Of a stretch of 64,000 nucleotides of DNA, positions 47,243 through 56,086 are shown in pieces. The stretch's first letter is position 1. Every line of letters begins with the position of its first letter. Origin of the DNA: a bacterium. Its GTDB lineage: Bacteria > UBA8248. The position numbers and the translations under genes are program-made. Below the pieces are notes generated by a model, which was not told where the DNA came from, ran no database searches, and saw only the letters and a list, made by a program, of their open reading frames with translations. The stretch lies in NCBI GenBank assembly GCA_965204535.1, contig CBDBEV010000001.1:1984001-2048000 (forward strand). The letters run 5' to 3'.

Positions 47243-47586
47243 GATTTTGCTCCTGCTGGAATTGCCATGAGGTGAAGAAGTTATATGAAATTCCCCCATC
47301 CGGGGGAGTTACCCGCGATTCGCCGGTTTTGGATTCGCCGCTGCGGCCCTTGAATCCGGGCTGCTGAACGGCCCGCACGGCGTTCGATCTGTTGGTTTGG
47401 AACGAAACAACCCATCGCGCGTGGAGGATAACAAAACCATGCCGAAGAAGAAACCGCCGCGCGGGTGGAAATCATTTTCACATCGTGGTCGAATGGGTTT
47501 TCCCGCCCGGGTGGAGAGGTTCCAGTTGCCCCGTATTCCATGTGTGCGCTTAGTGGATTTCATCTCAGTAGATTAGAGAGTTTACG

Positions 47587-48126
47587 TTGACTAATGAGTT
47601 TGAATGGCAAGAGGACCTACCGGTTGAGGCTCAGCAAAATCGAGAGATGTTCGCTCGCTTCGGGTTGGCGGTATATCGCGCGCAGTGTTTGGAACGCCAA
47701 ATCAAATTGATGCTTGGATCTATGTACAATCAAGGTTTTTTACGAGGTTTGCCTGCGGATTGGGAACACTTCCTTGATGAAGAATCAATTAAGAAAACCT
47801 TAGGACAAATGGTAAATGAACTTAAGGGCAAGACAAGCTTGTCACCGACGCTTGAAGCCAGATTGGTTGAAGCAGTTACACTCCGAAACGGGCTTATCCA
47901 CGATTATTTTCGGGTACATGAGAGAGATATGCTTATCTTAGATGAACGGGAGAAAATGATTTCTGAACTTCAAAAGAAGGGAGATTTTTTACAAGAACTA
48001 GATAGGGAACTCATGGAAATATGGAAGAATTGGATGTGTAGTATGGGTGTATCAAGAGAAAAAATTGAATCGGAAATAGAAAATTATATCCGGGAAATAA
48101 TCTCCAGCAATAGAAAAGATGTATGA
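47587..48126 (+). CDS. Low-GC hypothetical protein, HEPN-like
   Basis: Helical; AQCLE, TLGQM, RNGLIHDY (RX4H). Confidence 0.6.
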   Translation: MTNEFEWQEDLPVEAQQNREMFARFGLAVYRAQCLERQIKLMLGSMYNQGFLRGLPADWEHFLDEESIKKTLGQMVNELKGKTSLSPTLEARLVEAVTLRNGLIHDYFRVHERDMLILDEREKMISELQKKGDFLQELDRELMEIWKNWMCSMGVSREKIESEIENYIREIISSNRKDV

Positions 48127-48234
48127 AAGGATGAATTGTTCTGACAATTCATTTTGGTCGTATCTTAAACGTGTTTCCGCTTATTTTGGGAATTCTCTTT
48201 TAGCAAACGTTTTGCAATGCCTGGGCAAGCACCC

Positions 48235-49533: not shown

Positions 49534-50013
49534 ATGACCGAAAAGACCCTGTATCTGGCGAGTCCGTACGGCTTTTCCCTGCAGCAGCGCGAGGGGCCCC
49601 TGAAGGAGCTCGTGGCGGCGCTCGAGGGTTTGGGCGCTGAGGTGTGGGAGCCGTTTACGCGCAACAACCAGCCCGAGATGCTCGCGCGCCCCGGCTGGGC
49701 GTACCGCGTCGGGCAGAACGACATGCGCGACGTGCGCGATGCGGCGGGCTTTTTCGGTGTGGTGAACGGCTGTCCGCCCGATGAGGGCGTGATGGTGGAA
49801 CTCGGCATGGCGGTCGCCTGGGGGAAACCCGTATTCCTGTTCCGCGATGATTTCAGGCGCTCCACCGATTGCGAAGCCTATCCGCTGAACCTCATGATAT
49901 TCACCGGCCTGCCCGAAGTCGGCTGGGAGGCCTACTTCTACACCTCGCTCGATGAGATCGCAGACCCCGAGAAGGCCCTCGCGCGGTGGCTGAGAGACGA
50001 GCCGTTGTTGTGA
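49534..50013 (+). CDS. Nucleoside 2-deoxyribosyltransferase family protein
   Basis: YLASPYGF, DEGVMVELGMA, NLM. Confidence 0.88.
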   Translation: MTEKTLYLASPYGFSLQQREGPLKELVAALEGLGAEVWEPFTRNNQPEMLARPGWAYRVGQNDMRDVRDAAGFFGVVNGCPPDEGVMVELGMAVAWGKPVFLFRDDFRRSTDCEAYPLNLMIFTGLPEVGWEAYFYTSLDEIADPEKALARWLRDEPLL

Positions 50014-50064
50014 GTGGAGGTTGGATGTGGAGTATGATAGATAATCCTTTGAGAGGGAATATCT

Positions 50065-50835
50065 ATGCACTCGCATCATCGTTACAAAAATCCACCCATA
50101 GAAGAAGCGCTTTGTGAATTCCATTTTCAATCGGAGCAAGATTGGGATCCCACGATTCCTGGCAAATTACACAGCAAAGTTGTTGATAAATATGCTGGCA
50201 AGCCTCGGCAGCAAAAGGTCGTCGATGTAGGATTACAAATCCAGAAAGACAAACCTCCCAATCTAAGTTATGGCGAAGGGCTAGCACGGGTTCAGCTTGT
50301 CACAGAGAATGGAAAGAGAATGGTTGGGGTTGGACAAAATGTACTTAGCATTCACATGCTACGTCCTTATCAAGACTCTCAACATCCCGAGCACAGTGGA
50401 TGGGACGAGTTTCAGTCTCGAATCAAGCAGGCACTCGACGCGTATTGGAAAGTAGCGGAACCAAGAGGGATATTACGAATCGGTATTCGATATATCAATA
50501 AGATAGTGATTCCACAGGCGAAGGTGGAGGTTAACGACTACCTGAAATGTGCTCCGCCGGATGTAATTGAATTGCCGGATAGAATGAGAAACTATGGTAG
50601 CCGCGTGGAATATGTTTACGATGATGGAGTGCGTTTAGTCCTATCCAATGGTTTGATCAACGCGCCAATGAACAATATCGGACTAGTACTCGATCTTGAT
50701 GTCATTTGGGAAAATGCTACTCCAGTTATGAAAGATAAAGCAATGACGAAAGTAGAAGATCTGCGTAATCGCGAAAGAACTGCATTTGAAGCTGTTATTA
50801 CTGATAAAGCCAGGAAACTCTTCGATGCTGAGTGA
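50065..50835 (+). CDS. TIGR04255-family protein
   Basis: YKNPPIEEALCEF, RIGIRYINKI, LDLDV, FEAVIT. Confidence 0.8.
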   Translation: MHSHHRYKNPPIEEALCEFHFQSEQDWDPTIPGKLHSKVVDKYAGKPRQQKVVDVGLQIQKDKPPNLSYGEGLARVQLVTENGKRMVGVGQNVLSIHMLRPYQDSQHPEHSGWDEFQSRIKQALDAYWKVAEPRGILRIGIRYINKIVIPQAKVEVNDYLKCAPPDVIELPDRMRNYGSRVEYVYDDGVRLVLSNGLINAPMNNIGLVLDLDVIWENATPVMKDKAMTKVEDLRNRERTAFEAVITDKARKLFDAE

Positions 50836-51550
50836 AACTTACGAGCCATTGTCTTCCAGCGCTTCCACTTTAGACAACGACATTTTCGCTAATCTCCATC
50901 AATCGGGCATGCCTGATGATGATTTACCCTGGCTGGCTCCCGGAAAAGAATCACTTGGGGTCTCTGAAGCGGCTGTGTTGTTGGGAAAAGGAGTGAACGC
51001 CCCTGTGCGTAGTTCGTACTTAAAGTGGCAAATTGCGGGTGTGGGAGGCATGTTATTGGATGAGCAACTTTTCCCTATGCTCTTGGATATAGCCTGTTTC
51101 GAGCCGGAAACGAAACCGCAGACACTTATCGAGGATCAAGAACAACTACGACTTGCCACTAAATTGCAAGTGAGCTTTGAAGCTGATCCTCTGGAAGATG
51201 GGATGAGTCACCCTGCTGAACAAATTATTGAGGAGGCGTTGCGCAGTACAGAAGAGCGAAAGGTACTCGATTGGTTAAGAGTCTTGTCGTTGGATACTGA
51301 GTATCCAGGATTCTCTGCATCTGTTCTGCGGTGCCTAGGACGTCAGGCGGGGCCGGGCACGAGTTCATGGCGCACCGAATTCGTGCGCGATGCGTTGGCA
51401 TCGGATGATGTAGAGATTAGAGACGCTGCAGCACAAGCAGCGGAGTTGTGGGGCGACTTGGGGTTGATAGAAGTTCTGCAGTCGCACTTAGAAACGGAAC
51501 CATGGCTTCGAGACTACATTCAGGACATCATCGATAATTTACAGGAGTAG
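50825..51550 (+). CDS. Hypothetical protein with HEAT-like C-terminus
   Basis: Start overlaps the upstream gene end; ALASDDVEIRDAAAQAAELWG. Confidence 0.65.
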   Translation: MLSETYEPLSSSASTLDNDIFANLHQSGMPDDDLPWLAPGKESLGVSEAAVLLGKGVNAPVRSSYLKWQIAGVGGMLLDEQLFPMLLDIACFEPETKPQTLIEDQEQLRLATKLQVSFEADPLEDGMSHPAEQIIEEALRSTEERKVLDWLRVLSLDTEYPGFSASVLRCLGRQAGPGTSSWRTEFVRDALASDDVEIRDAAAQAAELWGDLGLIEVLQSHLETEPWLRDYIQDIIDNLQE

Positions 51551-51553
51551 GTG

Positions 51554-52069
51554 ATGTTCCTGGCTCGCAAAATCTCCCGCGCAAAGTGGGGGCCTAAGAA
51601 AGGGTTGTCGAAAGACGAAATCCAGGCTGACGCGATAACCGGGGATATGCGGACAAAAGACAATGCGTTGTCCTTTTGGGAGTGCGGTGACGGAGCAGAA
51701 ACTGAAGTCGAAGAGGTAGCGTTAGTGCTCGCCGCCGCTAGCGAACGTATAGACAAGATTGACATCGTTTGGCTTTCCGATGATGAGCTAAGAGCTGATG
51801 GTCATTCTTTAAACCATACCAAAGGACGTACACCCGTCAAGGAATTGATTGAACGGCACGTCGATGTTTCCCGGCTTGACTATAGCCGTCTCGGGAAAGT
51901 TGCTTCTCGTGTGGTAAATGCAATCGAACAAAAACACTTCCGTCGTCTTGCGAAAGACCGTGTTAAAAATCTTCTTGTAGCGGCAGTCAAAGAAAACCGG
52001 GTCGAACTCGCCGACCTTGAGGAGCGTGTTCGAACAGAAGTGTGCGAATTACTCGAAACGAAGCAATAA
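51554..52069 (+). CDS. Hypothetical protein, possible ADP-ribosyltransferase-like toxin
   Basis: LARK...LSFW...HVDV pattern; RBS CAGGAG. Confidence 0.55.
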   Translation: MFLARKISRAKWGPKKGLSKDEIQADAITGDMRTKDNALSFWECGDGAETEVEEVALVLAAASERIDKIDIVWLSDDELRADGHSLNHTKGRTPVKELIERHVDVSRLDYSRLGKVASRVVNAIEQKHFRRLAKDRVKNLLVAAVKENRVELADLEERVRTEVCELLETKQ

Positions 52070-52238
52070 AATCTCTCTTAATGTTCAGCTTTGACTTCCA
52101 AATGTAGGTATTGAGCTAGTTTTATCCCAAATTGCGAATTCATTTCGGCAGCTCATATCTCTCCCATACCGCTTTGTTTGACACGCTATTTGGCAGGAAA
52201 TTAAAGACAGTCAGAAGGCTTGCCGAGAACCCAGAAGT

Positions 52239-52469
52239 TCACCTCTTCCTGATAACAACGCGCACGCGGCCCTCGTCATCCGGCGTTGCGCTCCGGATGG
52301 TGTGGCCCTCGGCGGCGGCGCTTCCGGAGACGCTGGTGGCGGCCTCGCCGGGGTCGAGCCATACTTCGAGCGTATCGCCCGGCGCCATCGCCTCGAGCGC
52401 GAGCTTGGTTCGCACCCAGTTCATGGGGCAGAGTTCGCCCGTGAGGTCGATGGTTTTGGCGCGGCTCAT
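52239..52469 (-). CDS. TusA/SirA family sulfur carrier
   Basis: IDLTGELCP, GDTLEVWLD. Confidence 0.85.
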   Translation of the reverse strand: MSRAKTIDLTGELCPMNWVRTKLALEAMAPGDTLEVWLDPGEAATSVSGSAAAEGHTIRSATPDDEGRVRVVIRKR

Positions 52470-55272: not shown

Positions 55273-55480
55273 CGGAAATCGCTCCTTATCAAAGATTGAA
55301 GGATGATGTGTGTTTGAAAAGCGCGACCATATCACATATATCCTCTCTCGCCGATGGAAGGGCGGATGCTTTTTTTATCGTCATACGGGTTCTCGAAACA
55401 CCGCCTCGGGTCTTGACGCATTCGTTCCGCTGGGGCATGTTCCATCCTCTGATTTGTCTTTGGAATCAAGGAGATTGAAA

Positions 55481-56086
55481 ATGTCTTCACTTCAAGCGCA
55501 GCTTTTCGTGGAAACCGCTTCCGTCACGCTGAACCGCTTAACGAAGGACTTGCAGAAAGAGTTCGAGCCCAAGAAGGGGGATCGGTTCAACGTCGAGGGC
55601 ATCACCTACGAGATCGGCCCGCCGAAATTCGTGGATTCGGACAAGGCGATTCGCTTCGAGATCAGCTCGAAGATACCCGGTGAAGAACTGCCTGCTTCCT
55701 ACGATCACGCCAAGTATTTCAAACAGATCGAGAAACGCAACAAATCGGCGAAAAAACCCGTTTCCGCCGACATGGAGAACATCGTCCGCGAGACGCGCGA
55801 CCAGGAGAGAAAAGAAAGGGATTACGTGAAGCTCACATATCAGTATGCGGAGAATGAGCTTTACGACAACCGGGAAATCCTCAAGGACATCGAGGCGGTT
55901 GCGAAAGGCTCAAGCAATGAGGAAATGCCGCCCAAAGTCCCGGGCGTCACCACACTGGCGGGCCGCCTGATACTCGAACGGGTGCAATCCTCCCTGTACG
56001 AGGTGGCGAAAGGGAACGTCGAGTCGCTCATCGACGCGAACGCGAAAGTGCGCGAGGAACTGAAAAAAAGCGCAAAGAAGAAGTAG
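55481..56086 (+). CDS. Hypothetical protein
   Basis: RBS AAGGAG; 201 aa, host-like GC-rich codons. Confidence 0.75.
   Translation: MSSLQAQLFVETASVTLNRLTKDLQKEFEPKKGDRFNVEGITYEIGPPKFVDSDKAIRFEISSKIPGEELPASYDHAKYFKQIEKRNKSAKKPVSADMENIVRETRDQERKERDYVKLTYQYAENELYDNREILKDIEAVAKGSSNEEMPPKVPGVTTLAGRLILERVQSSLYEVAKGNVESLIDANAKVREELKKSAKKK

Follow-up and report, generated by a model that had tools for sequence, protein, structure and literature searches.

Three plus-strand genes, designated A, B and C, follow one another between nucleotides 50065 and 52069 of the window, by which we mean the whole 64,000-nt stretch of DNA analyzed here. Gene A (50065-50835), identified by ORF calling and an NCBIfam match, encodes a TIGR04255-family protein of 256 amino acids. 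Gene B (50825-51550) encodes 241 amino acids when read from an ATG that overlaps the stop codon of A by 11 nt; the longest version returned by the ORF finder uses a TTG start at position 50786. Gene C begins directly after the stop codon of B, at an ATG at position 51554 or, alternatively, at a GTG at position 51551. Its product, 171 amino acids long when counted from the ATG (51554-52069), falls in family phrog_10743 and is a predicted ART-fold toxin. The GC content over the three genes is 0.45-0.53 vs. 0.63-0.70 in most of the flanking sequence (calculated in 500-nt windows). A preliminary description of this DNA had pointed to three overlapping or abutting genes of low GC; as judged from the ORF coordinates and GC values, they are real and coupled.

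Comparison with a related locus, L001, revealed purifying selection on all three genes, with approximate dN/dS values of 0.16 for A, 0.35 for the N-terminal tail of B, 0.17 for the core of B and 0.05 for residues 1-116 of C. A public contig, which may be the source itself, spans the A-B-C stretch with 0 differences. No promoter, operator or terminator scoring above chance was found at the cassette. A related fragment of A is present in one metatranscriptome, as contigs only. A single contig of related sequence from an RNA run joins position 50712 to position 51061; this weak observation corresponds to a join that would delete the last part of A together with most of the tail of B.

The three genes occupy a variable slot (50004..52176) flanked on one side by a nucleoside 2-deoxyribosyltransferase gene and on the other by a small gene resembling tusA. 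In congeners this slot, a toxin hotspot, carries different low-GC cassettes. Alignments with congeners end at 49992-50021 and resume at 52174-52246, and one contig joins 50003 to 52177 directly. The upstream host gene is present in 21 of 22 congeners and the C family in two; genome G006 carries the same A-B-C cassette in the slot. We read the contents of the slot in 18 congener loci, naming genes by eye. A Fic protein was found in 10 of the 18 and a partial Fic in an eleventh; two loci contain a DUF4258/MqsA-like pair and a third contains the antitoxin alone. A DarT-like gene, a leader-peptide-like gene, a near-empty site and a different three-gene cassette, whose last product is an R-S-H protein, were seen once each. 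The latter (L103, genome G008) encodes proteins of 88, 184 and 139 amino acids, the last being R-S-H ART-like; at 88 amino acids, its first gene product falls far short of TIGR04255 in length and might represent another kind of regulator. The DarT-like ORF (L102, G014; 228 amino acids, by eye) lacks an evident DarG partner there. At a different site in a congener (locus L088, G010), a short HEAT-like gene precedes a distant C, and the region upstream looks disrupted.

Two other parts of the window attracted attention. A lysine-rich ORF of ~200 amino acids at 55310-56086 (plus strand) has a lower GC content and no Pfam match. A second low-GC insert, at 47587-48126 (plus strand), contains a 179-amino-acid HEPN/HepT-like gene (NF047751, E 6e-5, below the cut-off); the corresponding slot is empty in most of the congener loci that cover it, with alignments jumping from ~47540 to 48229.

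Predicted Properties of the Three Proteins

The call of A as TIGR04255-like, made in the preliminary description, was borne out by a full-length match to the NCBIfam model with 122.8 bits, the curated cut-off being 30; Atlas clusters for an A homologue carry the same name. In the predicted structure of A (pLDDT 88), roughly nine strands form a curved, two-lobed beta-sheet that is backed by helices on one side. Residues E14, E18, R142, N145, D210 and E242 are the invariant polar positions, and no nucleotide-binding motif was found in the protein. Structural neighbours of the model include guanidino kinases, Rep, TBP and AdoMetDC, all with Z of 7.1 or lower; such neighbours represent a common arrangement, not a fold assignment. 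One unnamed 202-amino-acid entry of the viral structure library matched A (E 1e-6, TM 0.49/0.61).

We searched for similarity of A to SecB in several ways. There was no Pfam match, and profile-profile comparison with 23 SecB sequences gave a score of 9.7, within or below the 10.5-15.2 obtained with shuffled columns. Profile comparison of SecB with the two halves of A and with diverged first genes (see below) yielded nothing, and neither did a comparison of the halves with each other as internal repeats. SecB is also absent from the listed structural neighbours of A, which were retrieved with the whole two-lobed model as the query. Given that no similarity to SecB was detected and that no structural match points clearly to a relative (best Z 7.1), the term chaperone applies to A by analogy only. 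A chaperone role is suggested by the behaviour of the genes described below, and a DNA-binding or enzymatic role is conceivable. In the literature searched, which takes in few subscription papers, TIGR04255 is named in no main text and no description of the A-B-C architecture was found. In a supplementary table, TIGR04255 proteins appear among defence genes predicted by DefensePredictor (PMC13092281, supplement; two of eight rows, log-odds 9.3 and 7.4).

Protein B consists of a variable, S/T/P/G-rich N-terminal tail (approximately residues 1-105; 50825..51139, plus strand) and a conserved helical, HEAT-like core (51140..51550, plus strand), which is the proposed antitoxin domain. Serine, threonine, proline and glycine make up 27.7% of the tail vs. 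18.8% of the core. Judged by its low conservation and its composition, the N-terminal half is probably poorly structured, as proposed earlier. The HEAT-like C-terminal half proposed alongside it finds a sub-threshold HEAT_2 match (residues 179-239 of the 254-amino-acid reading, E 0.0011); PF13646 was recorded in 2 of 120 listed B homologues.

Protein C matches the phrog_10743 profile, which carries no functional annotation, over its full length (residues 2-168, E 1e-33), and its family comprises 2428 representatives at 50% identity (E up to 0.001). A model built from 144 diverse sequences has a pLDDT of 98. When this model was used in a VIA structural search, 48 of the top 50 rows were chains of the ART superfamily, as judged by entry titles and general knowledge of the entries. 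The best matches are Tpt1 (9ld3; Z 6.0, rmsd 3.3, 85 residues aligned) and the Vibrio toxin VPA0770 (8gug; Z 5.9, rmsd 3.7, 104 residues aligned), followed by DarT (7omv, Z 4.7) and MbcT, Xre-RES and Tse2 (Z 4.5). With Foldseek, no row reached E 0.001; the weak rows include five ART-fold entries (CC0527, NarE, TreX, PltA and TreTu). As no Z value reaches 8, the case for an ART fold is built on the uniformity of the match list, not on one match.

In the alignment of the 144 diverse sequences, S40, W42 and H102 are present in all, and R5 and D104 in 131 each; thus, the R...S-x-W...H-x-D spacing noticed in the preliminary description is a conserved property of the family. In the model, the strands that carry R5 (51566..51568), S40 (51671..51673) and H102 (51857..51859) follow the same order as the R-S-E positions of ARTs. 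From this strand order, we infer that R5, in the first strand (E2-7), corresponds to position 1 (NAD+-binding) in the ART core, that S40, in the second core strand (E38-43), corresponds to position 2, and that H102, with which strand E102-106 begins, takes the place of the catalytic glutamate of R-S-E ARTs. A histidine where glutamate is usual may point to another chemistry or to the absence of catalysis. The ART-fold reading (ART for ADP-ribosyltransferase) offered earlier is thus supported as a prediction, and we regard C as likely to be an NAD+-using ART-fold toxin. Its target might be nucleic acid or NAD+, a guess made from its best structural neighbours, the Tpt1, RES and DarT proteins. 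None of the 144 family members matched RES (PF08808), DarT or Tpt1 in Pfam, and C has no name in Pfam, NCBIfam or PADLOC. More generally, Pfam, PADLOC and PDB sequence searches gave no name for A, B or C beyond TIGR04255 and the weak HEAT match. Atlas places C in unnamed clusters, the nearest named one being DUF6098 at 0.90, which is a lead only.

Pairing of B with C and Variation at the First Gene

Relatives of C are encoded at 135 places in GTDB, of which we examined the best 80. Going by their titles, the 80 genomes belong to more than ten phyla. The core of B is encoded directly upstream of C in all 80, and C was never seen without it in this set. The set consists of the best 80 of 135 loci retrieved with C as the starting point, so copies that have lost B would be underrepresented in it only if they decay rapidly. 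We consider it probable that the helical core of B is the antitoxin, binding and neutralizing C.

Distant copies from Gammaproteobacteria, with C proteins of 27-29% identity, still have the three-gene layout. They were found on a 4.4-kb Klebsiella ColRNAI plasmid, where they are the main cargo, on a 7.5-kb Acinetobacter plasmid and downstream of the lysis gene in Acinetobacter temperate phages; the viral loci number 26. The second genes of the two plasmids match the B profile with E 1.6e-8 and 9e-4, and that of the phage matches weakly (E 0.06). A scan of viral contigs with close alignments found no close relatives. In broad samples, few genomes carry the C family (3 of 401 and 1 of 201, each count including the seed genome). 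We conclude that A-B-C is a real, horizontally mobile three-gene cassette. The co-occurrence of its genes is wide (a close A in 44 and the B core in all of the 80 loci), and its presence on plasmids, in a prophage and in a variable slot is the behaviour of a mobile toxin-antitoxin or defence cassette, in keeping with the toxin/defence module proposed from the sequence of the window.

Of the 44 loci with a close A upstream, one (L001) has a 5'-truncated A and another (L043) a split B. The distance from A to the B-core motif, measured in 40 of the 44, is 95-135 codons. The B profile match starts at residue 50 or earlier in 38 of the 44 A-bearing loci vs. 4 of the remaining 36, which we sorted by eye. 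Eight of these 36, all from Chloroflexota, have a long tail behind a diverged first gene of 224-228 amino acids; alignments of such genes with TIGR04255 are in register and not significant by sequence, and an iterative profile search missed those at the Dehalococcoidia, plasmid and phage loci and at the gammaproteobacterial locus L209. Three loci (L016, L037 and L051) keep a long tail without A. The other 25 have a short or replaced B N-terminus and no adjacent A, although L036, among the A-less loci, has an A 4 kb away. Overall, 52 of the 80 loci have both the tail and a first gene, 25 have neither and three have the tail only.

Nine of the 25 A-less loci encode a B core joined to the first residues of A itself, indicating that one deletion can remove A together with the tail. 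The covariation of A and the tail is therefore partly a matter of deletion geometry. The tail-less, A-less state requires 15 changes on a quick maximum-likelihood tree of C, at least five of them forced by well-supported branches, and purifying selection on the B core and C was found in all seven tail-less, A-less pairs compared, not all of which are independent. Joint loss is what one would expect if A were needed because of the tail, just as the ChAD element makes an antitoxin dependent on a SecB-type chaperone (bioRxiv 10.1101/2024.02.24.581848). In five A-less loci (L046, L056, L066, L076 and L077, all from Spirochaetia), an excisionase-like HTH domain, recognized by eye, stands in place of the tail and is fused to the B core; these fusions look like natural conversions to a conventional two-gene layout.

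To see what follows TIGR04255 genes elsewhere, we collected 55 further loci from the phylum of the window and from two samples, the class around a gammaproteobacterial genome and the phylum around a Synechococcus genome. In three samples, TIGR04255, a family without an assigned function, is present in 10 of 51, 36 of 251 and 16 of 151 genomes (the tally of 36 includes one unpublished genome, whose locus was left out). A coupled ORF follows the TIGR04255 gene in 52 of the 55 loci and precedes it in eight, and a third gene is present in 53, the exceptions being L172, where the contig ends, and L227, where only B is within reach. By reading, 18 of the third genes are R-S-H ART-like (13 aligned), 23 belong to a family with an S/T-Q-D/S/T-C-D motif, five encode PIN and three papain-like proteins, and HNH, HEPN, YhaV and DUF7689 proteins occur once each. 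Pfam confirmed PIN (three of three tested), YhaV and DUF7689; the HNH, HEPN, papain-like and ART-like names are motif calls. The cores of the second genes are mutually unrelated, and most have a low-complexity S/T/G-rich start (by eye). The YhaV toxin at L164 has a PrlF-like partner that bears an added N-terminal tail and whose match to the Pfam model is confined to that model's C-terminal half. The neighbourhood survey suggested in the preliminary description thus returned a nearly constant three-gene layout with variable effectors. Since TIGR04255 heads many different pairs of a toxin and a partner, it is likely to be the shared control or virus-sensing part of a large, undescribed class of toxin-antitoxin systems.

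The commonest third-gene family (loci L109, L144, L148, L151, L152, L154, L158, L160, L161, L163, L166-L169, L211-L215, L217, L218, L224 and L225) carries Q-G-D and S/T-Q-x-C-D motifs and had no Pfam or PADLOC match in the members tested. It is probably another undescribed toxin; its S/T-Q-D/S/T-C-D motif recalls MazF/PemK.

A Candidate Mechanism, Its Rivals and Related Systems

The following scheme can be proposed. A would hold the flexible N-terminal tail of B, thereby keeping the antitoxin stable, and the helical core of B would keep C inactive. A phage protein, which is the likely signal, or stress would occupy A and so free C, and the freed C would use NAD+ to modify nucleic acid or protein, arresting the cell. 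Binding of the tail by A, tail-driven instability of B and release of C upon infection are all modelled on SecB-dependent TAC systems. By this analogy, control of the antitoxin through A and the tail appears somewhat better than an even bet, and an anti-phage, abortive defence role of the cassette is one that we moderately favour. We give roughly even chances to the whole chain of an ART toxin, B as antitoxin, control through A and the tail and a phage trigger.

Alternatively, B and C could be a toxin-antitoxin pair with A as a nucleic-acid-binding regulator that uses a TBP-like saddle and, together with the tail of B, provides an autoregulation otherwise missing from these antitoxins, with no chaperone addiction. 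The HTH found in place of the tail at five A-less loci fits a regulatory role more than a chaperone one, the half-length Pfam match of the PrlF-like partner at L164 points the same way, and TBP and Rep are among the neighbours of A (1mp9, Z 6.4; 4cwc, Z 7.0). However, the TBP and Rep matches have rmsd above 5 and TM of ~0.3, many second proteins appear to have an HTH of their own (L148, L151, L152, L154, L158, L161, L167, L168, L211, L212 and L214), and the cassette offers no operator or promoter above chance. We consider regulation of this kind unlikely.

It is also unlikely, in our judgement, that the cassette stabilizes plasmids or islands as a selfish addiction module and plays no part against phages. 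Addiction would need no third component ahead of many unrelated toxins, one copy is in a prophage accessory position and there are the 26 viral loci; moreover, DS-42, which has a similar three-gene layout, is reported to be defensive (PMC13092281, supplement). These points have to be weighed against the cassette being the main cargo of small plasmids, its persistence after loss of A and a slot shared with ordinary toxin-antitoxin genes.

That A is a kinase- or ligase-like enzyme which switches the antitoxin by modifying the S/T-rich tail of B is improbable: the top VIA rows for A include guanidino kinases, McsB and glutamine synthetase/PafA folds (Z 4.8-7.1), and the invariant polar residues and Ser-rich tails would suit such an activity, but every Z is below 8, identities are 4-14% and a nucleotide-binding motif is lacking. 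Even less can be said for C as a non-toxic NAD+-dependent enzyme, of Tpt1-like RNA end repair or similar, acting with A and B in an accessory pathway, since Tpt1, although no single structural match scores higher, is level with a toxin of a toxin-antitoxin system (Z 5.9), PIN and YhaV toxins can stand in the third position instead, and C was never seen without the B core in the loci examined.

Returning to A as a controller of the antitoxin, the preliminary description had likened the layout to CmdTAC. The TAC analogy holds in that A and the tail are lost jointly and TIGR04255 heads many toxin pairs, but membership in the TAC group does not, since no SecB similarity was found by sequence profile and the gene order is mirrored. 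Like CmdTAC (PD-T4-9), HigBAC and MqsRAC, the cassette has three genes and a third component reused with unrelated toxin-antitoxin pairs, and the variable tail of its putative antitoxin tracks that component; with CmdTAC it would also share an ART-fold toxin, as predicted for C. In TAC systems, however, the third component is a SecB-family protein, here replaced by TIGR04255, and the order regulator-antitoxin-toxin of A-B-C is the mirror image of theirs. Their ChAD is C-terminal in the antitoxin, whereas in B the variable tail is N-terminal and the C-terminal half is the conserved core; B also differs from TAC antitoxins in having a folded HEAT-like core. The triad of CmdT is described as H-Y-[E,D,Q] (PMC11618068), and C, with its R-S-H residues, is therefore of a different family. 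RES/Xre, MbcTA, DarTG and Tpt1 provide structural neighbours of C but have different partner genes.

The cassette would build a TAC-like logic around a third component of unrelated origin and add a new ART-like effector, and it appears more general than first supposed. In its broadest form, which we advance tentatively and regard as somewhat less likely than not, TIGR04255 would be a second, SecB-unrelated antitoxin chaperone and phage sensor that binds the N-terminal tails of unrelated antitoxins. It would define a widespread regulator-antitoxin-toxin immune class with at least eight interchangeable effectors, including a new R-S-H ART paired with a HEAT-like antitoxin. If TIGR04255 is a shared control part of toxin-antitoxin cassettes, a large set of hypothetical three-gene operons is annotated at once, DS-42 and PDC-M32-like systems gain a candidate mechanism, and chaperone-gated toxin release would have arisen twice, in mirror-image form. 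The natural A-less, tail-less variants are ready-made controls, and C would add a predicted ART family with histidine at the usual catalytic position.

DS-42 (PRO1) is described as three coupled genes, encoding 238 amino acids, 190 amino acids and an effector, with defence replicated (PMC13092281, supplement). As far as that source describes it, its effector is an MBL-fold hydrolase, whereas C is ART-like and 171 amino acids long; its second gene looks unrelated to B, and its first gene has a motif likeness to TIGR04255 by eye only. DS-21, also from DefensePredictor, was checked and is unrelated, and a motif search of the DefensePredictor supplements returned one irrelevant row.

PADLOC gave no match with the proteins of the window or of the distant copies. 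Among other three-gene systems, Rst_3HP is found in prophages. PDC-M32 is a PADLOC candidate for which no experimental test was found in the literature searched. Its A and B models did not match the window proteins or the 144 C relatives; they did match second and third genes behind TIGR04255 at L175 (E 1.9e-11), L157 and L174. The third genes of these operons share the R-S-H pattern with C, and profile similarity between the C family and the other R-S-H ART-like group is weak (P 0.016).
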